Assembly: GCA_009780375.1 (NCBI GenBank)
Contig: WRAD01000001.1
Span: 48,228-112,227 of the forward strand
DNA length: 64,000 bases
Direction of reading: 5' to 3'
Source of the DNA: Bacillota bacterium
GTDB taxonomy: Bacteria > Bacillota > Clostridia > Christensenellales > UBA1242
In this document: positions 48,014-63,902 of the stretch, piece after piece
How positions within the stretch are numbered: position 1 is the first letter of the stretch
Layout: each line of letters starts with the position of its first letter
Made by a program: the position numbers and the translations under genes
Notes under the pieces: model-generated
Database searches by the model: none
What the model saw: the letters and a program-made list of their open reading frames with translations, nothing else
What the model was told of the DNA's origin: nothing

Positions 48014-48835
48014 CTATATGCCCGTATCTTCAATTTCTGAAAAACTTCCACCGATAAATTTTGCCGTCTTTCCAGTATTGTCAAGTTCACCATCATTATC
48101 ATTAATTATTGGCATCCTTGCAACACTGTTTCTTCTCAGGGTTTGTTTAAAAAATCGTTCTAAACTTGTGTGATATTTATCCTTGTGCGTGAGATTAAAT
48201 TCCGCAATTTGTTGAAGCTTCGCACTTCGTACATCACCTGTATCAATACTTGTCTGGATTAATGCCTCAACATCACCTTCGGTATAAACAAGTGCCGCCG
48301 CGGTATTTAATTGGCTTTGCTTGTAGAGCGGCATTAAAACATCAAACAAATTTGCATCATCAAGGCCACTTCCGATAACAATGAGGGTACAATGGGAAAA
48401 AGAAACAGTCCGTCCCATGTTAACCCCAATATCGGCCAGTGCTTCGGTAATATCTGTGCCACGCCCAACTGCAATATGTCTTTCTGGTATGCCAAAAGGG
48501 TCAAAATTAAATAAAACATGTTCACCGTAAACAATAATTTCATCGTCTTCCATGTCAATCGCTATTGCGGTTAATATTGTTCTTGTCAACGCCATCGATT
48601 GTTTTGACACAGCCATAGGTAATAATGCAACAAGCATAGCCAATATAATAAGCAAAAACTTTTTCTGCCATATCGTAATAAAAATTTTTACAAACACATT
48701 TTGTTTTTGTTCTAGCCTAGGAATTATCGTTAAATTTTTTGTACTAGGATCTCGACTGGAGCGCACCGTATGGTGCTTTTGTTCTTTTTTTTTCTTGCTT
48801 TCATCGACTTCTTTATTGGTTGTTCTATCTTTCAT
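48014..48835 (-). CDS. GerAC/Ger(x)C-like germination protein, apparently truncated and with a repeat-derived N-terminal extension
   Basis: The core (LTAIAIDMEDDEIIVYGEHV..., GRTVSFSHCTLIVIGSGL) resembles the N-terminal half of Ger(x)C. ATGA overlap with the upstream gerAB-like gene. Residues ~18-41 are translated from repeat C8. No lipobox Cys. Confidence 0.5.
   Translation of the reverse strand: MKDRTTNKEVDESKKKKEQKHHTVRSSRDPSTKNLTIIPRLEQKQNVFVKIFITIWQKKFLLIILAMLVALLPMAVSKQSMALTRTILTAIAIDMEDDEIIVYGEHVLFNFDPFGIPERHIAVGRGTDITEALADIGVNMGRTVSFSHCTLIVIGSGLDDANLFDVLMPLYKQSQLNTAAALVYTEGDVEALIQTSIDTGDVRSAKLQQIAEFNLTHKDKYHTSLERFFKQTLRRNSVARMPIINDNDGELDNTGKTAKFIGGSFSEIEDTGI
48716..48785 (+). repeat. 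Dispersed repeat copy C8 (full length, antisense inside the gerAB/gerAC junction)
   Basis: CCTAGGAATTATCGTTAAATTTTTTGTACTAGGATCTCGACTGGAGCGCACCGTATGGTGCTTTTGTTC, preceded by TTTTGTTCTAG. Confidence 0.9.
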
Positions 48836-50016
48836 ATTCTTGCCTCCTTTGTTGCAGAGTCACTTTTTTGTTTCTTGTCTTTTTTACCAGAATTTCTTTT
48901 TTTCAAAATCAATGCGTTAATTAAACACACAACAGGCACCGTAAAGAACAAAATCGCAATCGCAGGGGCGACAATAACAATGAAATCATTCAATCTGTCA
49001 GGTGTTTTTACAAGCAACCACCACATTAGATATAAAAACAATGCAACAGAAAACCCAATGTAACCGGCCCTATGTTTGACGTTAAAAATATATCTTAAAC
49101 ATGCAAACACCGCAAAAAACGTTGCCCCAAATCTTAATAATAATAACATTGACCAAATGCAAACCAAAATCCAATCAAGACGCCCACTCTGTGTCAAGAA
49201 TTCTGAATAGGTTGTCAAGTTTGTAATTGCCAAATCTTTTGTAGGTCCAAGTGGTCCAAAAATGCTTGTAAACATAAACACAAAAAATACAAAGAAAGCC
49301 CCAACAAGTCCGGCCACAAGCATAAATTTTGTTATGAATTCTTTTGGATTTTTAAAAGGTATTGGTTGATTTTCACCTTGTGCCTTTGCCGGGCATCCTT
49401 GTTGGATGTCACCAGAAAAAATCAACAAAAAAGCCGCACTTTCAAAGTAAATAAGATTATGATAAAAACCACGTAAAATCGGCATAAAACCGCCACTGAA
49501 CAACGGTGTAATCTCACCCGGATTCATACTTCTTAATGCAGGGAACACCGATAGTGCAATGCCAATAATAATCAACAGGTAAAAAATTTCACCACTACGG
49601 AAAAAAGCCCTTGCAGGTAAAAAGCAAAATGCTGCACCAAAAATAACAAGTGGTATTAAAAATTTGTGGATATTTAATTCGGTAAAAAGATTTTGACCTA
49701 ATATAATGTAACTTTGACTTGCCAAAATAAATAATTGTAAAAGTAAAAGACCAAGCATCAAAAGAACAACAAGTTTTGCCCCCACAAACTTTGTATTAGA
49801 TCGCAAATCGCTGTATATATCACTTCCTGCCCCAATTACAAGTACATTAAGAACCGCAAAAATTACAAGCAACTCGAACACCGTTCCAATCAACGCAATT
49901 ACCCATGCATTGCGAACGCTCTCGCCCGATAATATTGCTGGAAGTGCCAAAAATTTTATTGCAAACGAATATATACAATAAAATATAATCAACTGTCTTG
50001 TGGAAATTTTTTTCAC
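48832..50016 (-). CDS. Spore germination GerAB/GerKB-type permease (APC-like)
   Basis: The N-terminus MKKISTRQLIIF... is typical of Spore_permease proteins (IS.RQL). About 10 TM segments. GTG start. Confidence 0.7.
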   Translation of the reverse strand: MKKISTRQLIIFYCIYSFAIKFLALPAILSGESVRNAWVIALIGTVFELLVIFAVLNVLVIGAGSDIYSDLRSNTKFVGAKLVVLLMLGLLLLQLFILASQSYIILGQNLFTELNIHKFLIPLVIFGAAFCFLPARAFFRSGEIFYLLIIIGIALSVFPALRSMNPGEITPLFSGGFMPILRGFYHNLIYFESAAFLLIFSGDIQQGCPAKAQGENQPIPFKNPKEFITKFMLVAGLVGAFFVFFVFMFTSIFGPLGPTKDLAITNLTTYSEFLTQSGRLDWILVCIWSMLLLLRFGATFFAVFACLRYIFNVKHRAGYIGFSVALFLYLMWWLLVKTPDRLNDFIVIVAPAIAILFFTVPVVCLINALILKKRNSGKKDKKQKSDSATKEARI

Positions 50017-50045: not shown

Positions 50046-50219
50046 CTATTCAGTACCAAATTGACTAAGGTCTTCATCATGTGCAACATAGTCAAAAATA
50101 AGGCGTACCAATTTTTTAAGAAATTCCTTATCTCTGTTAATATGTTGTATAAGTGCGTCCATTTTGTCACTTACAATCTTTTCCTTGTCTTCAAAAATTT
50201 TGCCTTGGGTATCTATCAT
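50046..50219 (-). CDS. Small hypothetical protein (57 aa), divergent from the XRE gene
   Basis: AGGAGG SD 9 nt upstream of the ATG (MIDTQGK...). Predicted helical and acidic. Confidence 0.5.
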   Translation of the reverse strand: MIDTQGKIFEDKEKIVSDKMDALIQHINRDKEFLKKLVRLIFDYVAHDEDLSQFGTE

Positions 50220-50241
50220 GTTTAAAAACCTCCTATTTTCA

Positions 50242-50289
50242 CCAATATGGCACAAGTATAAATTATTTTGTTCCAATATGCAACAATAT
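50242..50289. promoter_or_regulatory. Operator-like direct repeats in the divergent promoter region
   Basis: CCAATATG occurs at 50242-50249 and 50273-50280, and CAATAT again at 50284-50289. Confidence 0.35.
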
Positions 50290-50294
50290 TTTAT

Positions 50295-50498
50295 ATGAGT
50301 TTAGCAAAAAATATTAAAACATTACGTAAAGAGAAAGGACTTACTCAAGAGGCATTGGCAAAAGATTTAGATATAGGTCGTGGAGCACTTGCACATTATG
50401 AAGCAGGGGACAGACAAGTGCCTAGTTATCTTGTACCAAAAATCGCAAAATACTTTAATGTGTCAATAGATTATTTATATGGAGAAAGAGAAGAATAA
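50295..50498 (+). CDS. XRE-family helix-turn-helix transcriptional regulator
   Basis: IKTLRKEKGLTQEALAKDLDIGRGALAHYEAGDRQVP is a canonical Cro/C1 HTH. 67 aa from MSLAKN. Confidence 0.85.
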   Translation: MSLAKNIKTLRKEKGLTQEALAKDLDIGRGALAHYEAGDRQVPSYLVPKIAKYFNVSIDYLYGEREE

Positions 50499-50547
50499 TT
50501 TTTTCAATATCATATGTAGGGGCAAACTTGCGATTCGTTCAAAAAAA

Positions 50548-50592
50548 TTGACAAACTTTGTAATTGTCAAAAATCAAAAAACATCGTAATAT
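50548..50592 (+). promoter_or_regulatory. Inverted repeat TTGACAA-N9-TTGTCAA overlapping the promoter TTGTCA-17-TAATAT of CDS 50599
   Basis: Perfect 7-bp arms at 50548-54 and 50564-70. The -10 TAATAT at 50587-92 lies 6 nt before the ATG. Confidence 0.5.
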
Positions 50593-50598
50593 TAAACT

Positions 50599-51030
50599 AT
50601 GTTAAAAAAACTTTTTGCAAAAAAATCAAAAACAAAAGGATATCCACGAGGATATACGCCAACTTCTGCCGATTTGGCTGTAGATAATTTTGTTGCAAAC
50701 ACACTTAAACAAAAACAGGAACTTAATTATACGCAAAGTGACTATGAAAAACTTGTTGGTAAAAAACTTCAAATATTCAATTGCACAAATGGGGAAGACA
50801 TAACCTATAAACTTGAATCGGTTGCTCATCTGGAAAATTCAACTTTTGGTGACACATTTTATTTACTTGCTAACGCCCCTGACAAAACACAAATTGTATT
50901 TCATCCGCGTTACCAAGATGAATCGTTTTGTTTTATTACTGCGGTGAACGGGAAAACTCTTGACGGGTATTTATCATTGTCTGATCACGAAATTTGTGCT
51001 GAACTTTTGCCTAAAATTACAAAGTCATAA
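50599..51030 (+). CDS. Hypothetical protein
   Basis: 143-aa ORF in the leaderless promoter context. No motif recognised. Confidence 0.5.
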   Translation: MLKKLFAKKSKTKGYPRGYTPTSADLAVDNFVANTLKQKQELNYTQSDYEKLVGKKLQIFNCTNGEDITYKLESVAHLENSTFGDTFYLLANAPDKTQIVFHPRYQDESFCFITAVNGKTLDGYLSLSDHEICAELLPKITKS

Positions 51031-51121
51031 GATTCTAATATCTACTTATAAGACCTGCATGAATTTACACTTTGGCATTACAGGAAAAATGTTCTTAATT
51101 GTCGTTATAAACATTTCCGCA

Positions 51122-51149
51122 TTGACATAATTCGATTTTTGGCTATAAT
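51122..51149 (+). promoter_or_regulatory. Promoter TTGACA-16-TATAAT, with the ATG 7 nt after the -10
   Basis: TTGACA at 51122-27, TATAAT at 51144-49, ATG at 51157. Confidence 0.6.
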
Positions 51150-51156
51150 GGAAGAT

Positions 51157-52884
51157 ATGAAAAGACGCATCTTAACCATAGTCGGTATTGCAATTGTTGT
51201 ATTTGCAGGTGGACTTACCGCTATTTTGATAAACGCGATGGCAACAACAATTAGGCTCTCTCCTGTAGGAAGTATCTACAGTGTCTCTGGCAATGGTGGG
51301 AATGCCGTTTCCGTCGGCGGTTACTTGTATTTTATTGGTAACTTTCACTCAAGGTACGATATAAACAGGCGTCCAAATAACATTTATGGTAATCCAGGCA
51401 CAGGGCATCGATTGACAAATGGTGCGATTTGGCGTATTCGTTTAAACGAAGAGGGGCTTCCACAATATGACAACAGTTGGATTGACGGATGGCAAGATGA
51501 ATGGAATGCAGGGCACCCTGATTTTATAGGCGGTCCAAATTCATCAGAAATTGATGATTTAAGACAGGACAATGAACATATAGAAACACAGATTGACTCG
51601 CGATTTGTTCCAGGTACCCTTGAACTTGTTGTGCCAAAGGTCGCAGGTCACGAACAAAGTTCGTTATTTATTATGGGCAATCATCTCATTTACACAAGTC
51701 CACACAACTATTATGGAAGAGGTCATGATGATTTACAAATCGACCGAACAGATTTTTTCAGGGTAGATTTAACAGGTGCAAATAACAGGCTTTTGTATAC
51801 AACAAGGTCAAGGGCTCATCAGGTAACACGCAATGACTTCACCGTCGCATGGGTAGATGGACAAAGTCATCTTTTAATTCGTGAACCTGTTGGGGATGGA
51901 CTCAGCCGAATCACACACGTTAATGTATCCACCGCAAGGGTACAAACACTTACAACCGAGGCGGCAACATGGGCATTCCCAGAGGTGACAACCTTCATAA
52001 GAACCACCTCAGGTGGAACCCACTTAAAAGGCTTTGGGGGCATAATGTCATTCGTGTATTGGACCGAGGCTCGTCCTGAATCCGATCCAACAAATGGTGA
52101 CCTTGTATTCCGTCACCACTTGGGGTCAAGAAACGCAACACGTAACCTTATGGCAGACGACCATAACACAAGATTTCAACTTGTATCGCTAAGCGGTGGA
52201 CGCCTTATTTGGAGAAGAGGCAATTTTAATACTCCACACAATTGGTCACTTCGCATAACAGAAAGTACCGATCAGGGTGTTTTTGCATCAGGTGCAATAA
52301 ACGCAGAAACTCGCCAAGTATGGGAAGCCGACATGGTGTCAATGTCAACAAGTGATTCCGAATTTAATACAATCGTTGCACCAACAGAAAACGCAGGATT
52401 TGTATTCAGTTTCTTTACGCTGTTCGGTCCTTCTGGTAACCAAAGTATTTGGAGATGGACATTAAGCGATGGACAATTTTCCGAGACGGTGATTCCTGGA
52501 ACGCAAGGTGTTGAAGAAATTGTAAAGGTTGCATCAAGTCGCCTGTTCTTTATGCGTGGCGGACAACTTCATTCAATTAATTTTGACGGTACAATTGCAA
52601 GACCACCTGTCACAATTTCTCCTGACCGTGAGACACGAATAAATATCTCTATCTTCACCCCAATCGCAAGTGATGGGTTCAGGGTAAATAACGCACATGA
52701 CTTTATCTCATATATCCGCACAATTCACTCAATTGTTGATGACGACATGGTTATCGATGATGAAACTGGCGAATCTCCAATCCCAACAGGTAATTCAATA
52801 ACAATTGCAGTGATTGTTGATCGTCAAAACAACGCTCATCGTCTTTGGAATCTTGAAAATGAATTCGTAGGAATTCCATCTTAA
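51157..52884 (+). CDS. Membrane-anchored beta-propeller-like protein (DUF5050/TolB-like repeats)
   Basis: N-terminus MKRRILTIVGIAIVVFAGG anchor, with recurring YF/LY..G..L..I..DG-type blades (YLYFIGN, LIYTSPHN, FFRVDLTGANNRLLYT, LFFMRGGQLHSINFDGT). Family call is by resemblance only. Confidence 0.55.
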   Translation: MKRRILTIVGIAIVVFAGGLTAILINAMATTIRLSPVGSIYSVSGNGGNAVSVGGYLYFIGNFHSRYDINRRPNNIYGNPGTGHRLTNGAIWRIRLNEEGLPQYDNSWIDGWQDEWNAGHPDFIGGPNSSEIDDLRQDNEHIETQIDSRFVPGTLELVVPKVAGHEQSSLFIMGNHLIYTSPHNYYGRGHDDLQIDRTDFFRVDLTGANNRLLYTTRSRAHQVTRNDFTVAWVDGQSHLLIREPVGDGLSRITHVNVSTARVQTLTTEAATWAFPEVTTFIRTTSGGTHLKGFGGIMSFVYWTEARPESDPTNGDLVFRHHLGSRNATRNLMADDHNTRFQLVSLSGGRLIWRRGNFNTPHNWSLRITESTDQGVFASGAINAETRQVWEADMVSMSTSDSEFNTIVAPTENAGFVFSFFTLFGPSGNQSIWRWTLSDGQFSETVIPGTQGVEEIVKVASSRLFFMRGGQLHSINFDGTIARPPVTISPDRETRINISIFTPIASDGFRVNNAHDFISYIRTIHSIVDDDMVIDDETGESPIPTGNSITIAVIVDRQNNAHRLWNLENEFVGIPS

Positions 52885-52963
52885 ATTTACTCCAATTCAT
52901 TATTTTTCGTTTTGAACTTCTTTGTTTTTACCTTATAATAAGATATATCTAGGGGGAAAACAA

Positions 52964-53449
52964 ATGGAATTGAAATTAATTAAAAGGCTTGCCGAGTTAA
53001 TGAATTCGGAAGGGCTTAAACAGCTTGAGCTTACAACGGATGCAGGGTCAATATGGCTTGAAAGAGACAGCAGTGTTACTGTTGTTGATACAACATCTAT
53101 AAGGGCAAAAGTTCCAGAAAGTGTAGATCAACGCGTTTTAATTAAAAAAGTAACAAAGCCAGGTAAGAAAACAACAGTAAAAGAAATCAAAGTAATGTCT
53201 GGTAAGTGTTATGAAATTCGAAGCCCAATCGAAGGAATATTTTATGCGGCAACAGAACCTACCGATCCGCCATATGTAACAATAGGGCAAACGGTATCCG
53301 ATGGAGACTTGCTTTGTGTTATCGGTGAAGATGGCGTAATGAATGAACTTGAATCCGAAGTTGATGGCGAAGTGTCGGAAATCCTTGTATCAAACGGTCA
53401 AAAAATTACATTTGACCAAGTTCTTTTCAAAATAACTAAAAAAGGCTAA
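52964..53449 (+). CDS. Biotin carboxyl carrier protein (BCCP)-like protein lacking the biotinyl-lysine
   Basis: The N-terminus MELKLIKRLAELMNSEGLKQLEL and C-terminus RSPIEGIFY...GDLLCVIGEDGVMNELESEVDGEV are collinear with AccB, but EAMKM is replaced by GEDGVM. AGGGGGA SD upstream. Confidence 0.65.
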   Translation: MELKLIKRLAELMNSEGLKQLELTTDAGSIWLERDSSVTVVDTTSIRAKVPESVDQRVLIKKVTKPGKKTTVKEIKVMSGKCYEIRSPIEGIFYAATEPTDPPYVTIGQTVSDGDLLCVIGEDGVMNELESEVDGEVSEILVSNGQKITFDQVLFKITKKG

Positions 53450-53458
53450 ACTAAAACT

Positions 53459-55462
53459 ATGTACAATCTTGGCATCGTTCAAAAATTTAAAGAAAAATGG
53501 CATGTCTATACAATCATAGCGATTGTAACTGTCGTTATATTTTTGTTTTTAACAATGATGATAATCAACATGGTAAGCGGAAATCCTATCTTCAGTTTTG
53601 GTGCGGTAAGAAATCCTTACTTTATAACAATTGCACTTATAATACCGTTCGGGGTAATCGCTTTGTTGGTCGCAGGGTTTTTCTTCAGTGACGAAAAGAG
53701 TAAAACCGTCGAACAATTTTATTCTAACCGTTGGATGTCAAAGTCGGAACTTAACAAAGTTTATCTCTCAACTACACTAAGCCGACTTAAAATGCAACAA
53801 AAAACAGGAACCCTTGTAAGATTTGAAAAAGTAGGAACCGACATCCAGATTAATATGGTTCCACAAGATTATCATACGATTGTTCTTGGAACAACAGGTT
53901 CTGGTAAAACTCAAGGGTATGTGTTGCCATATGTTTATGTGCTTGGGCACTCTGCCCAAAAGCCAAATATGGTTATCACCGACCCAAAGGGCGAGATTTA
54001 TGCAAAAACCGCCGAAACCTTGCGACGAAATGGTTATGATGTCCAGGTTTTTAACCTAAGTGCACCGACACAATCTTCAAGATGGAATCCACTCGAGAGA
54101 GCATGGGATATGTTTCAACGTGCACACAGTTTGGAAAGAGAACTTAAAAAACATACATCCAAAGATCCGGCATCAATGGGGTTAAGAGTAATTGCAAGTA
54201 ACTATCCAAGTGAATGGTACGAATTTAACGGGGTTGCATTCCCAAGTTTTCAAATGGCAGACATGGAAAGGAAAACACTCAAGCAACGGCTTCTTTCCGA
54301 GTCTGAATCTGATATAAAAGATGTATGTGCGGTAATTTGCCCAATAGAAAACGAGCGTGACCCAAGTTGGGAAAATGGGGCAAGGGACCTTATCCAGGGT
54401 ACCGTTCTTGCAATGTTAGAAGACAGTCTCCGTCCAGAACTTGGCATGACAAAGCAAAAATTTAATTTTTATAACGTGTACAAAATCTTAACGATGCGAG
54501 ATAATGATCCAAACGCATCTTTCAAATCCATTGCAAACTACTTTATGGGGCGTTCCAGATTATCTCCGGCGGCAATGCTTGCACAAACGGTTATTGCCAA
54601 CAGTGAAAATACAAAGCGTAACTTCTTTGGTGTGTCTACAAATAAACTTTCCATGTTTGCCGATAAAGGTATTTGCTATATAACAAGCGGTACCGAAATA
54701 GAATTTAAAGGATTTGTTGAACGTCCAACCGCAATGTTCCTTGTTATTCCTGACCAAATTAAAATTCGTCATCCTCTTGCTGTGCTTTGTGTGGCTCAAC
54801 TTTACAAAACGCTTGTTGATCTTGCCAATCAACAGGGCGGAACCCTAAAATGGCCGACATACTTTATTCGTGACGAGTTCGGTAATATGCCAAAGATGAA
54901 TGACTTTGAAACAATAATCACCGTTGCCCGTTCTCGTAAAATCTTTATCACCCTTGTTTTGCAGGACTATAAACAACTTGAAACCGTTTATGGTGCGGAC
55001 AAAGCGGTTACTATTCGAAATAACTGTAATACACAAATTTTTATCGGTGTTAATGATATGGATACAAGAAAGATGTTCTCGGATCTTCTTGGTGAAATGA
55101 CTGTTGAGGCACATTCCACCTCGGAATCAAAAAACACAGGCAAGCAAATCAAGGATGATCCTCTAAGTGGTTCAAAATCTACATCTACAAATACGGTGTC
55201 CCGTCCTCTGTTACCACCCAACGAACTTCTTGATCTTCAGCCGGGGCAAATTTATGTTTATGCATTTGGCTTTCACCCTCTGAAATCTCATGTAACTCAC
55301 TTTTGGAAGGCTCAACAAGCAGGTCTCGTAAAGCTCTATCCTGAACCTGACACATGGTCTGCATCCAAATATTTTGATGAAGAGGCGGTTTATTATGATG
55401 TTCGCCGTCGTAACGACATAGTTATCAACAATGCTCGTCGCAATGATGTTTTTGATTGGTAA
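53459..55462 (+). CDS. Type IV secretion coupling protein (VirD4/TraG/TraD-family ATPase)
   Basis: Two N-terminal TM segments, Walker A VLGTTGSGKTQG, Walker B-like YFIRDEFGNMP, and the LVLQDYKQLETVYG and IFIGVNDMDTRKMFSDLLG motifs. Confidence 0.8.
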   Translation: MYNLGIVQKFKEKWHVYTIIAIVTVVIFLFLTMMIINMVSGNPIFSFGAVRNPYFITIALIIPFGVIALLVAGFFFSDEKSKTVEQFYSNRWMSKSELNKVYLSTTLSRLKMQQKTGTLVRFEKVGTDIQINMVPQDYHTIVLGTTGSGKTQGYVLPYVYVLGHSAQKPNMVITDPKGEIYAKTAETLRRNGYDVQVFNLSAPTQSSRWNPLERAWDMFQRAHSLERELKKHTSKDPASMGLRVIASNYPSEWYEFNGVAFPSFQMADMERKTLKQRLLSESESDIKDVCAVICPIENERDPSWENGARDLIQGTVLAMLEDSLRPELGMTKQKFNFYNVYKILTMRDNDPNASFKSIANYFMGRSRLSPAAMLAQTVIANSENTKRNFFGVSTNKLSMFADKGICYITSGTEIEFKGFVERPTAMFLVIPDQIKIRHPLAVLCVAQLYKTLVDLANQQGGTLKWPTYFIRDEFGNMPKMNDFETIITVARSRKIFITLVLQDYKQLETVYGADKAVTIRNNCNTQIFIGVNDMDTRKMFSDLLGEMTVEAHSTSESKNTGKQIKDDPLSGSKSTSTNTVSRPLLPPNELLDLQPGQIYVYAFGFHPLKSHVTHFWKAQQAGLVKLYPEPDTWSASKYFDEEAVYYDVRRRNDIVINNARRNDVFDW

Positions 55463-55502
55463 GGTGATCTTATCGGAACGTCAAGATTAAAAATGGGATT
55501 CA

Positions 55503-55531
55503 TTGACAAAAAGCATATTTTGACGCATAAT
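55503..55531 (+). promoter_or_regulatory. Promoter TTGACA-17-CATAAT, with the ATG 6 nt after the -10
   Basis: TTGACA at 55503-08 and CATAAT at 55526-31. The string CGCATAATAAAGATATGAA is identical to the one at 33792-33810. Confidence 0.6.
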
Positions 55532-55537
55532 AAAGAT

Positions 55538-56446
55538 ATGAAATCAATAAAAAAGGTTTTGCTTTTGATTCTGATCCTTGTACTAATTGCCCCTGTCGCA
55601 ATAATTGCAACAGGATGCTTTGGCGGTAATAACAACTCAATCAATCGCGAGCACATACAAAATATACAATGGAATCTTGCACGAGTCGAAAGTTCCTCAT
55701 CACATGACCCAACGGTTCATTCAATAGGAGCGGGAGATATTTTATTTGATAACCAATTTGCCGGTTTTTTGTTTTTGGGCGGAGCCGGTAATTTTATCGA
55801 AACACTTGGTATTTTAGGTGAATTTCATGGGCATTGGACATTGTCATCTACGCGATTGGTTCTTACTTATGATATAGGAGGATTTGTTGACAGATGGAAT
55901 ATAAGATTAAAGAACAATAACACTACGCTTGAAAAATCTCAAACACAGCTTGGTATAACTTCAACGTTTATTTACACCAAAAACGAAGTTCTGCCTAATG
56001 TTAATCCAATAAACCCGGCACAAATTGTCGATATTCAATGGAATCTACACTCGGTAAGTTATATAGATGAATCATCCAATGTAACAATTGTAGACGAATA
56101 TGAACACATGGAGTTTGGAAGTTACAATCATTTTACAGAAATGTATGCAGGCTATCTCATCTTGCACAATGACAACAGATTTATACAAACTCAAGGTCAA
56201 TTTGGCGCATTTGAGGGTGCTTGGACATTGTCGCAAGGAACGTTGGATTTAACCTTTGACCCAGAAATTATTGATAACTGTGAACTTTATCCAGAACATC
56301 AACATTATTGTTTCCCTCCAAGCCGTACTGAAACCTGGAGACTTGGCATATCTGAAGATGGACAAACTTTGGAAAAGGTGCGTGCGGAACTTTCATTTGA
56401 GGGTGGTATCGCTTTTGAAATTCGTATATTTACTCGTGAAAACTGA
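55538..56446 (+). CDS. Lipoprotein with two tandem homologous domains (possibly META/HslJ-like)
   Basis: Lipobox IIATGC. Two ~125-aa repeats each start I(Q/V)(N/D)IQWNL and end (H/A)WTLS...L.LT(Y/F)D. Confidence 0.65.
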   Translation: MKSIKKVLLLILILVLIAPVAIIATGCFGGNNNSINREHIQNIQWNLARVESSSSHDPTVHSIGAGDILFDNQFAGFLFLGGAGNFIETLGILGEFHGHWTLSSTRLVLTYDIGGFVDRWNIRLKNNNTTLEKSQTQLGITSTFIYTKNEVLPNVNPINPAQIVDIQWNLHSVSYIDESSNVTIVDEYEHMEFGSYNHFTEMYAGYLILHNDNRFIQTQGQFGAFEGAWTLSQGTLDLTFDPEIIDNCELYPEHQHYCFPPSRTETWRLGISEDGQTLEKVRAELSFEGGIAFEIRIFTREN

Positions 56447-62020: not shown

Positions 62021-63748
62021 TTATTTCTCACTATCTTTTTCATTATCTTGTTGCGATTGATTCCATTCATTCCAATCTTTTTGAATTTGTGCTTCGTCAA
62101 TAGAACTTTGTCGGAATTGCTCAAGTGTCATGCCAAGAACTTGAACACAAACTTGTTCGCCCATTTGTGAAAAATAATCTCGCAGTTGTGACATGTCATT
62201 TGAATATTCAGAACGTTCGGCATCCGACATATGTTGCATATCTTCCAAACGAGAATACCCACCACCATACTTTTCTTGTACTTTTTGAACAAGGGTTGCG
62301 ACTTCGGTTGCCTTTGTCATGTCGTTGTTAAGGTGACGTGCGAAATAGTTTGCCCAAGCATTTGTATTAATTGTTTTGTCGGTTTGTTGTTCTTTGTGGC
62401 TTTCGTTGATAACTGCAAGAGTGCTTATTGTATAGTCGTTGCCGATGTCAAGATTAATAATCCACCATTGCATGCCATAATCGCTTTGCATTTGTGGCAA
62501 TGTGTCGTCATGGTGTTGTTGTAACAATTCAAATTCTTTGTCTAGGCTTTCTCGGTCACGGATTTGTGCACCCTCGTTTAATTTTCGCACAAGTGTCGCA
62601 ATTCGTTTAACATCATCGGCAAACATTTTTTGTTCAACTTTGTCTTGTGCTTTGTTGCCGGAAATTGTTTGGTCGGCTGGCAATTCGTAATACGATGAAA
62701 TCATGTCATATTGAAATGCAAGTTCTTGCAACGATTTTTTGGCAACATTAATATCGTGTTGATCTTGATGCGTTATTGGTTTTAATGGCTCGCTTGATTT
62801 GATTGGTTTTGGTGGGGTTGGTGCTTTGGGTGGTAAAGGTGGGGTTGGCATGGAGAATGTTGGTTGTTGGGGTGTTTGTTCAGATTCTATTGTTGTTTCA
62901 ATAAAAGGTGTTATTGCATCAATATCCTCCTGCGTATAACTTCTATCAATCAACCTAGATGCACGATTAAATCCGATACGAAAATCTCTTTGAAGTCGTG
63001 ATGTCATAGGCTGTCCAGTTGAATCTTGGGCATCATAAATGCGATCTAAAAATTCTTCCGTTGTGATTTGTCCACCTTTGAATTGTTCAATACAATCTTT
63101 CATTTCTTGTGGTGTTCTAATCGTTTTGTTTTCTTGTCTGTTATCTTGATAAATCTCATTTGCTATAGTGTCGTAAACTTGCACCAATGTTTCTGTATTG
63201 AAAAATGATTCATTTTCAAACATTGAACGATATCTGTTTTCTTCTTTTTTATTTACCGCTTGCCAATGCAAAACTGTCCAATCTACTTCATCTTCATTTT
63301 GCAAGTTTTTAAGTTCATCAAACATCAACGCCACAAAATCGTTTGAATTATAATCAGCAACATCTACAAATTCTTTTACAAGTTCTGTAAACAATTCTAT
63401 TGTTGTTGGTGTGATTGCTTGTTGGTCTTGGTTGTGGATAGTGATTTTTGGTGTTTTTTCCGTTTCACGTTCTGCTTTCTCATACAAGTTAAACAAGTTT
63501 TGAATTTTATCCAAAGCAACTACTTTAGTTACTAGTCCAATTTCGTCAAGCAATGAATACATTTGCCAATAACTAACTTCAAGACCAAGCAATGAATCAA
63601 TTTCGTATTGCGTAAGCATATCACCACCAGTTGCACTGCGATACGTAAAATATTCGACTGCGGTTTTGAAAATTTCCCAATCGTATACTTCATAATCACC
63701 AGACAATAAATGTTTTTTCATCGCATTTTGAATTTGTTCGTCTGTCAT
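62021..63748 (-). CDS. Large acidic hypothetical protein with an FtsK-gamma-like winged-helix motif and a Pro-rich linker
   Basis: GGAGG SD before the ATG at 63748. SRLQRDFRIGFNRASRLIDR resembles the FtsK gamma LQRRLRIGYNRAARLI. Linker is PTPPLPPKAPTPPKP. Confidence 0.6.
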   Translation of the reverse strand: MTDEQIQNAMKKHLLSGDYEVYDWEIFKTAVEYFTYRSATGGDMLTQYEIDSLLGLEVSYWQMYSLLDEIGLVTKVVALDKIQNLFNLYEKAERETEKTPKITIHNQDQQAITPTTIELFTELVKEFVDVADYNSNDFVALMFDELKNLQNEDEVDWTVLHWQAVNKKEENRYRSMFENESFFNTETLVQVYDTIANEIYQDNRQENKTIRTPQEMKDCIEQFKGGQITTEEFLDRIYDAQDSTGQPMTSRLQRDFRIGFNRASRLIDRSYTQEDIDAITPFIETTIESEQTPQQPTFSMPTPPLPPKAPTPPKPIKSSEPLKPITHQDQHDINVAKKSLQELAFQYDMISSYYELPADQTISGNKAQDKVEQKMFADDVKRIATLVRKLNEGAQIRDRESLDKEFELLQQHHDDTLPQMQSDYGMQWWIINLDIGNDYTISTLAVINESHKEQQTDKTINTNAWANYFARHLNNDMTKATEVATLVQKVQEKYGGGYSRLEDMQHMSDAERSEYSNDMSQLRDYFSQMGEQVCVQVLGMTLEQFRQSSIDEAQIQKDWNEWNQSQQDNEKDSEK

Positions 63749-63902
63749 AGAAACCTCCATATCGTTTGTGATGCATAAAAATTACCGAAACTATTAAATT
63801 GTGGTTTGCTTGTCAGGCACTATAAATTATACTACATTTGAACTAAAATGAAAAGACAAAAGTTACGGGGCAATAACACAATAAATTACTTATTGGCGGA
63901 CG

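Follow-up and report, generated by a model that had tools for sequence, protein, structure and literature searches.

Type IV coupling proteins (T4CPs) of the VirD4/TraG family are usually treated as parts of mobile genetic elements (MGEs), whereas the T4CP gene dealt with here belongs to a lineage found on the core chromosome of many uncultured gut Clostridia and tied to giant proteins. The gene lies in a stretch of 64,000 nucleotides (hereafter, the window) from a Bacillota bacterium (NCBI GenBank assembly GCA_009780375.1, contig WRAD01000001.1, positions 48,228 to 112,227). Among known systems, the chromosomal type IV secretion systems (T4SSs) of Patescibacteria represent the closest described situation, and the apparatus of the Mycoplasma integrative and conjugative element (ICE), known as MICE, represents the closest machinery. 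The MICE apparatus is formed by CDS5 (VirD4), CDS17 (VirB4), CDS16 (VirB6-like), CDS13/15 and the lipoprotein CDS14 (PMC6030558; PMC12857230). In M. agalactiae, CDS14 provides contact, and most MICE proteins have been described as having no homologue outside Mollicutes (PMC6030558). In Patescibacteria, relaxase-less chromosomal T4SSs with PF18895 pilins have been reported, in which only 148 of 5,713 VirD4-type T4CPs are located near virB4, and for the distant t4cp genes an exapted role has been considered (PMC12102498). According to a recent review, VirB2-like pilins are otherwise missing from Gram-positive T4SSs (PMC12857230). Our literature search found no paper on such a system in Clostridia, and nothing specific on orphan T4CPs or T4SSs in Christensenellaceae-like bacteria.

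By every sequence criterion, the product of the window gene is predicted to be a bona fide T4CP, as had been claimed in a first description of the region made from its letters alone (the sequence-only reading), where the ATPase was considered intact. The protein exceeds the cut-offs of PF02534 (182.6 bits against 20.1, E 1.7e-53), of PF12696 (119.1 bits against 22, E 1.4e-34) and of the NCBIfam model NF045973 for VirD4-like proteins of the CD1115 family (308.5 bits against 250), relative to which it carries an insert of about 90 aa. It resembles TrwB weakly, but the similarity is real. As in the VirD4/TraG T4CPs of Firmicutes elements (NF045973; PF02534/PF12696/PF10412; TrwB, 1E9R), there is a two-helix anchor (hydrophobic helices at residues ~17-40 and ~54-76), an FtsK/HerA-type nucleotide-binding domain with Walker A (GTTGSGKT) and Walker B (DEFGN) motifs, a TraG-D_C region and an acidic/aromatic tail. 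Across 30 aligned orthologues neither Walker motif varies, and family membership and motif integrity are therewith established. The C-terminal tail (YYDVRRRN...NDVFDW) is also conserved: a YYD(I/V)-x2-RN module (residues ~640-667), followed by a short aromatic-ended tail, is found in the window protein and in all T4CPs of the related loci L002-L128, with acidic residues usually preceding the end (NDVFDW, DDDDDDLF, SPFDF). This tail recalls that of TraD, which binds TraM. Unlike the T4CPs of mobile elements, the one in the window is not encoded on such an element and lies in core synteny; the linkage to a relaxase or VirB4 gene that serves as the contextual criterion for this family is absent from the window.

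The locus is flanked by core genes, in agreement with the sequence-only reading. These are gerAB/gerAC-like genes, trmD and rimM on one side and rpsO and pnp on the other, while ftsH, comEC, mnmE, recD2, metK, alr, folD, ruvAB, gltX and rpsG/L are found further out on the contig (ENA ERZ27257297 k141_2636167; NCBI locus tags FWE01_00555-00575). Genes of mobile elements and T4SSs were searched for with Pfam on 20 further window open reading frames (ORFs), in the Pfam tables of the depositor, which covered the two ends of the window and 10 kb upstream, with custom hidden Markov models (HMMs) of pilins and VirB6-like proteins, and by tRNA and repeat scans. In the window and the 10 kb upstream (~74 kb of core chromosome), these searches brought up no gene for a relaxase, a VirB4, a VirB6-like protein, a pilin, an integrase or a transposase, which bears out their reported absence, and relaxase families had no match either in the scanned window ORFs or in the scanned neighbour proteins of related loci. 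Likewise, a VirB4 of the Mbov_0397 family (NF045975) is absent from the window, and HMMs for pilin-like (Mbov_0395) and polytopic (Mbov_0396/MMCAP2_0566) proteins had no match there. The repeat scan of the flanks gave short imperfect repeats only, none of them of note, and the 64 kb contain neither a tRNA gene nor an Rfam family at the gathering threshold, including the regions upstream of metK (26750) and rpsO (56618). The GC content, whose possible deviation had been raised, is unremarkable (0.37-0.41 over the T4CP gene and 0.32-0.44 over the whole locus, against 0.33-0.41 in the flanks). An origin from a megaplasmid (bioRxiv 2026.02.21.707213) was also considered, and it was rejected because the contig bears ribosomal and other core genes.

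Homologue searches returned about 70 cluster representatives of T4CP orthologues at 60-76% identity, nearly every cluster having been seen on one contig each, with the next level of identity at 46% or less; plasmid T4CPs do not exceed 30% identity to the window protein. When one genome per GTDB species was scanned, 25 loci were assigned to the clade of the window (clade 1) and about 38 more to a second clade (clade 2, 35-40% identity). All these relatives are metagenome-assembled genomes (MAGs) or metagenome contigs with loose taxonomy, their ORFs were called mechanically and then clustered, and a gene reported below as absent from a related locus is absent within a flank of at most 10 kb, shorter at contig ends. 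The clade-1 hosts are MAGs recorded under the names Clostridia, Christensenellaceae or Bacillota, and they come from the guts of termites, ruminants and rodents and from other gut sources. In them, the T4CP gene keeps a housekeeping synteny that involves ppx/gppA, a nucleoside phosphorylase, a MurJ-like flippase, a metallo-β-lactamase (MBL) hydrolase and a CPBP protease, as well as rpoA-rplQ, scpAB, metK and atpG, and none of the 25 clade-1 species-level loci has an integrase or a relaxase. The ratio of non-synonymous to synonymous substitution (dN/dS) of the T4CP is 0.08 between the window and L007 and 0.04 between L007 and L080, with dS saturated. Judged by these values, the orthologues are under strong purifying selection, and the T4CP is a conserved, vertically inherited chromosomal gene.

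These data bear directly on the proposal that the locus is a decayed conjugative element, in which the T4CP would have lost its function and be all that is left of an ICE. The solitary T4CP, with no partner genes in the window, is what such a remnant would look like. Nevertheless, the low dN/dS values and the conserved housekeeping synteny of the orthologues exclude decay as a working explanation; no variation is seen in the catalytic motifs, syntenic core contexts are occupied by about 70 orthologues, and flanking repeats, integrase, tRNA and GC anomaly, the hallmarks of an MGE, are all missing. We therefore regard this proposal as scarcely credible, and a repurposed or domesticated T4CP, the other proposal of the sequence-only reading, fits far better. 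In annotation, a lone T4CP should not be taken as evidence of a degraded ICE.

T4CP-only modules occur on integrative and mobilisable elements (IMEs) of Firmicutes, and the gene might accordingly encode a helper T4CP that mobilises co-resident or incoming elements through the T4SSs of other MGEs. This idea draws some support from the tyrosine-recombinase genes that adjoin the T4CP in the clade-2 loci L040, L048 and L063, although these three are the only related loci with recombinases nearby. Neither a relaxase nor an oriT lies beside the T4CP, the synteny is vertical, and the strong conservation of the regions that recognise the substrate speaks for a single constant partner and against a changing set of MGEs. 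A helper role is hence distinctly improbable. As regards the recombinase genes themselves, they form a set (clusters c22 and c31-c33) immediately upstream of the T4CP in these loci (~5-9.5 kb), which is possibly an element integrated beside a clade-2 T4CP.

In the relatives, a giant protein of 2,500-2,850 aa (termed c3) is encoded directly after the T4CP on the same strand in 22 of the 25 assessable clade-1 species loci, usually with a gap of 14-106 bp. Its linkage to the T4CP in relatives is established; coordinates for three loci are given in Table 1, and about 20 other loci have it as well. The protein has a conserved transmembrane (TM) helix at each end, the C-terminal one being followed by a basic R-x-R-x-K-M-x-x-K tail, and the β-rich body between them matches no Pfam domain. 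It evolves fast, the proteins of L080 and L007 being 50% identical while their T4CPs are 90% identical. No c3 gene is found at the T4CP position in the window, L010, L012 or L031, and a homologue search for a c3 giant elsewhere in the window genome gave only six matches, c3 evolving too fast for the word filter. Clade 2 shows a fixed layout of its own, with the T4CP followed by a 160-aa protein and, on the opposite strand, two small proteins, a cardiolipin synthase and a giant of 1,850-2,770 aa. HMM comparison revealed no homology among c3, c6 and the giants encoded beside VirB4 genes (see below), and Pfam detected no informative domain in the giants, the lipoproteins, the VirB6-like proteins or c1, c2 and c5. 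According to the predicted architecture and the recurrent gene order, the conserved partner of the T4CP is a putative giant surface protein, which the window lacks.

The regularity of this gene pair favours a stand-alone, exapted T4CP that would use no VirB4/VirB6 channel, and that would act as a motor for envelope proteins (c3 in the relatives, and a β-propeller protein and a lipoprotein encoded next to the T4CP in the window), be it in extraction, insertion, secretion or FtsK-like DNA translocation. Besides the giant gene 14-106 bp behind the T4CP, this explanation is backed by the fact that, except for pilin genes in L009 and L027, no channel gene occurs within 10 kb of the T4CP in clades 1 and 2, and by the exaptation raised for distant t4cp genes of Patescibacteria (PMC12102498). 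It is opposed by the N-terminal signal-anchor of c3, with which c3 export needs no T4CP, and by the intact T4CPs without c3 of the window and the three other loci. In addition, pilin genes persist beside clade-1 T4CPs, and homologues linked to a T4SS have the same C-terminal docking module. On balance, a T4CP working on its own in this manner seems unlikely, but it is the main rival reading and deserves more weight than a helper role.

The persistence of pilin genes leads to a group of more distant T4CPs that are encoded beside a T4SS, a linkage which is likewise established. The T4CP of L076 (P0075, 41% identity to that of the window) is divergent from two pilin-like genes and genes for a 901-aa polytopic protein, an 895-aa VirB4-like ATPase and a giant. 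In L034, L035 and L037, a pilin and a polytopic protein accompany the T4CP, in L066 a VirB4, and in L072 a polytopic protein, a TasA-like/SipW-like set and a 3,608-aa protein, while pilin genes (PF18895) lie directly upstream of the T4CP in the clade-1 loci L009 and L027. The small proteins are identified by Pfam as T4SS_pilin (PF18895), and the VirB4-like ATPase matches P-loop_TraG and AAA_10. More specifically, the models built for mycoplasma ICEs recognise these proteins at or near their cut-offs. The VirB4 of L076 reaches 610 bits with NF045975 (Mbov_0397 ICE conjugal transfer ATPase; cut-off 590), and those of L113 and L136 fall just under it (585 and 576 bits); the polytopic proteins of L113 and L076 reach 107-114 bits with NF045848 (Mbov_0396/MMCAP2_0566 families; cut-off 90), and the L009 pilin reaches 61 bits with NF045849 (Mbov_0395; cut-off 40). 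In a simple neighbour-joining tree, the T4SS-linked T4CPs form the sister branch of clade 1 and clade 2 falls outside both, and the C-terminal YYDI-x2-RN module with its aromatic, usually acidic, terminus is common to lone and T4SS-linked T4CPs.

A metagenome scan with the L076-type VirB4 gave 287 relatives, of which 80 loci were retained. The usual VirB4 cluster encodes, in order, a giant, a pilin, a lipoprotein, a polytopic protein, VirB4 and a second giant, and is adjoined by core genes such as fba, gap and mnmA. A divergent T4CP gene is found next to the pilin in nine of the 80 loci, and the group at 41-44% identity, which is largely rumen-derived, has no T4CP in the recovered flanks, which extend to 10 kb at most and are often limited by contig ends. 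Such clusters without a nearby T4CP are the mirror image of the lone-T4CP loci. No relaxase and no accessory protein recognisable by Pfam were seen in the VirB4 clusters, and no DDE transposase was seen within 10 kb of them.

These clusters share with the MICE apparatus the Mbov_0395/0396/0397-type genes, in the same order and with a lipoprotein gene, and the lack of a recognisable relaxase, VirB1 or VirB8. They differ from it in that they occupy conserved chromosomal contexts (mnmA, fba, gap) and include giant proteins of 2,400-3,600 aa, and the window itself differs in having the T4CP alone. Homologues of the Mycoplasma-ICE machinery thus occur, in fixed chromosomal loci, in gut lineages that public records label as Clostridia or other non-mollicute Bacillota, and the pilin-like genes beside the T4CPs would be a further exception to the absence of VirB2-like pilins from Gram-positive T4SSs. 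With regard to the organisation of individual contigs, L136 (3-21434), L145, L146, L160 and other rumen contigs encode a giant of ~2,450 aa, a pilin-like protein, a lipoprotein, a polytopic protein, an Mbov_0397-type VirB4 and a second giant of 2,900-3,350 aa, with no T4CP in their recovered flanks. In L072 (3043-14157), inspection by eye indicated that the pair of VirB6-like and T4CP genes is flanked by a SipW-like signal peptidase with an SGSM motif and by four paralogues of 190-265 aa whose signal peptides are TasA/camelysin-like; this TasA-like set hints at a fibre or pilus module.

The best reading of these sequences is that the T4CP lineage of the window is restricted to uncultured gut Bacillota and that its ancestors worked with a minimal T4SS of the Mollicutes-ICE type that had no relaxase. 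Besides giant proteins and a lipoprotein, the ancestral set would have included an Mbov_0395 pilin-like protein, an Mbov_0396/MMCAP2_0566 polytopic protein and an Mbov_0397 VirB4. In the clade of the window, the T4CP gene would then have lost its link to the channel genes and become a fixed part of the core chromosome, usually a short distance upstream of a co-directional giant gene, and in the window genome a local rearrangement may have removed the giant gene and placed a pair of genes for a β-propeller protein and a lysine-less biotin carboxyl carrier protein (pseudo-BCCP) directly upstream of the T4CP. As to its present role, we lean towards a T4CP that still serves as substrate receptor and ATPase of a relaxase-less T4SS encoded elsewhere in the genome, with surface proteins giving contact. 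The membrane-anchored hexameric ATPase would pick a conserved substrate, either protein or DNA-protein, by means of its strongly conserved all-α insert and its acidic/aromatic C-terminal tail, and would pass it to a VirB4/VirB6-like channel whose genes lie at another site of the genome, while giant adhesin-like proteins and lipoproteins would mediate contact between cells. Since relatives have a giant partner and sister T4CPs lie beside a T4SS, the word orphan, as used in the sequence-only reading, probably describes the locus, and not necessarily the genome.

Several observations weigh against a role of the T4CP in such a T4SS. Channel genes are absent from the 64-kb window and the 10 kb further upstream. 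No examined contig has both a clade-1 T4CP and a VirB4, and neither GC content nor megablast overlap linked the lone-T4CP genomes to the VirB4 loci that lack a T4CP. The sister contigs that bear a T4SS are of uncertain taxonomy, and some of them may be wall-less Bacilli and not Clostridia. Furthermore, in the patescibacterium Ca. Southlakia epibionticum the distant t4cp is not essential, whereas other T4SS genes are (PMC12102498), and a lone T4CP therefore need not serve a T4SS. Finally, the tight linkage between T4CP and giant could instead reflect a two-gene function that is independent of any channel.

The likeness to Patescibacteria extends over several traits, as their T4SSs are of monoderm, MPF_FATA-derived type, chromosomally fixed and relaxase-less, with PF18895-type VirB2-like pilins and with T4CPs that are mostly distant from virB4 (PMC12102498; PMC12857230). 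In contrast, the host here belongs to another phylum and differs in lifestyle, being a walled Firmicute of the animal gut with germination genes (gerAB/AC-like, yabP), and the T4CPs of its lineage are linked to giant surface proteins. A bolder extension, which we consider speculative and on the whole doubtful, is that a whole group of walled gut Firmicutes has a resident, vertically inherited machine of the relaxase-less Mycoplasma-ICE type, with fast-evolving giant surface proteins as contact factors and the lone T4CP as substrate receptor. Such a machine would serve a purpose other than the transfer of an element, and it might be used for distributive exchange of chromosomal DNA, as in mycoplasma chromosomal transfer, or for contact-dependent delivery of proteins; alternatively, the T4CP-giant pair might form a channel-independent system. 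A system of this kind that functions would be the counterpart in Firmicutes of the co-opted T4SSs of Patescibacteria and a handle on the exchange of DNA or proteins between cells in the termite, rumen and human gut.

The content of the window is modest by comparison, consisting of one lone gene with non-conserved neighbours, and the wider T4CP family is of more interest than the sequence-only reading could show. All six ORFs of the locus are present at the coordinates first described (Table 1).

Table 1. Positions of the T4CP gene, its window neighbours and promoter-like sites, and of c3 and pseudo-BCCP genes in related loci
Feature	Locus	Position	Strand	Evidence
XRE-family helix-turn-helix (HTH) regulator, 67 aa	Window	50295..50498	+	PF01381, 6e-15
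143-aa near-ORFan (p143), no TM helix	Window	50599..51030	+	ORF call
Sigma-70-type promoter match, TTGACA-16-TATAAT, 12/12 consensus	Window	51122..51149	+	7 nt before ATG 51157
Membrane-anchored β-propeller protein, 575-578 aa	Window	start 51148 or 51157, end 52884	+	TM helix, model
Promoter-like site of the pseudo-BCCP gene	Window	52912-52939
Pseudo-BCCP, AccB-like, 161 aa	Window	52964..53449	+	full-length alignment to E. coli BCCP
T4CP, VirD4/TraG family, 667 aa, MCL2850843.1	Window	53459..55462	+	profiles, motifs, TM anchor
Promoter-like site, TTGACA-17-CATAAT	Window	55503..55531	+	6 nt before lipoprotein ATG 55538
Lipoprotein, two lipocalin-like repeats, 302 aa from M16	Window	55538..56446	+	lipobox IATGC
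Giant protein c3	L001	12598-20289
Giant protein c3	L007	12461-20233
Giant protein c3	L015	12047-19987
Pseudo-BCCP orthologue	L007	8000-8530
Pseudo-BCCP orthologue	L009	8867-9358
Pseudo-BCCP orthologue	L080	4273-4830

The descriptions of the individual proteins stood up well. The membrane-anchored β-propeller-like protein, encoded by a 581-aa ORF, has an N-terminal TM helix followed by a confident all-β model (pLDDT 82.9, pTM 0.84, from 37 homologues) whose structural matches are exclusively β-propeller domains, and its family is lineage-restricted (~38 proteins) and has no Pfam match. The 143-aa protein matches no Pfam or NCBIfam model and has four homologue clusters among 1.84 billion representatives. 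The lipoprotein is indeed an internal duplication, with repeats that are 34% identical (E 3e-11). With the XRE protein, said to be a switch heading the whole set, only the HTH domain is upheld, and no evidence of its control over the gene set was seen. The 9-nt gap between the BCCP-like gene (stop 53447-53449) and the T4CP gene (ATG 53459) is real, and the former encodes an AccB homologue (TIGR00531; PDB 4HR7, 1BDO) aligning over its full length with E. coli BCCP. Unlike AccB, this protein shows EDGVM where 4HR7_B has EAMKM, the biotinyl lysine being replaced, and scores 97.7 bits with TIGR00531, below the cut-off of 115.2. It was named pseudo-BCCP on both these grounds, and its gene is paired with that of a surface β-propeller and not with acc genes. 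Lysine-less paralogues of BCCP are also represented by the plant BADC-type proteins.

The shared orientation of the six genes and the short gaps between them speak for the proposal that they form one new operon for envelope export or defence. It is also in its favour that the propeller, pseudo-BCCP and T4CP genes lie within 1-6 kb of one another in four genomes. Searches for the window neighbours with tblastn, phmmer, HMM and jackhmmer covered about 80 loci of related T4CPs, and the XRE protein, p143 and the lipoprotein had no counterpart there, barring weak HTH-domain matches and one weak lipoprotein-like match (E 2.7e-5); this lack of conservation largely refutes the proposal. The propeller and the pseudo-BCCP recur in four close genomes only (the window, L007, L009 and L080), and in the last three of these metK, patatin, atpG-type or pilin genes stand between them and the T4CP: metK and other genes intervene in L007 and L080, and a pilin gene between pseudo-BCCP and T4CP in L009. 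The small proteins encoded upstream of orthologous T4CPs are otherwise not BCCP-like. A defence role finds no backing in PADLOC, which returned generic HTH matches for the XRE protein, a weak and partial ATPase-domain match of T4CP residues 126-275 to mad8 (44.5 bits), and nothing else.

The transcriptional signals point in the same direction, as the propeller, pseudo-BCCP and lipoprotein genes each have a promoter-like site of their own, and the likeliest transcription unit of the T4CP therefore comprises the pseudo-BCCP and T4CP genes. The -10 hexamer located 7 nt from ATG 51157, the start of the propeller in the NCBI annotation, suggests a leaderless transcript separate from those of p143 and XRE. 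The lipoprotein probably starts at ATG 55538, as in the NCBI annotation, and from the position of the promoter-like sites the propeller and lipoprotein mRNAs may both be leaderless, while the pseudo-BCCP gene has a Shine-Dalgarno sequence (GGGGGA). Taken with the conservation data, this makes a single six-gene operon very improbable, somewhat more so than a helper T4CP, and the part of the sequence-only reading in which the set of five or six genes forms one functional unit is unsupported.

In the four genomes with a pseudo-BCCP, the biotinyl lysine is missing from every orthologue (EDGVM, EAGRHF, ETGRHL and DTGEFH), and the gene lies directly 3' of the propeller gene in three of them, with other genes in between in L009. 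In the window, metK is located 25 kb from the T4CP locus, for which reason the tight propeller/pseudo-BCCP/T4CP layout is attributed to local rearrangement.

Two further observations concern the surroundings of the locus. A gene on the minus strand (62021-63760) encodes a 579-aa protein that lacks the FtsK ATPase domain, and whose sole Pfam match is FtsK gamma (KOPS-binding) at residues 247-273. On the other side, also on the minus strand (48014-50016), a GerAB-like permease is encoded together with a GerAC protein that has the N-domain alone, and no GerAA-type gene occupies the first position of this operon. The block from XRE to lipoprotein begins exactly where the GerAA-type gene would be expected, and this position may therefore be a rearrangement breakpoint.

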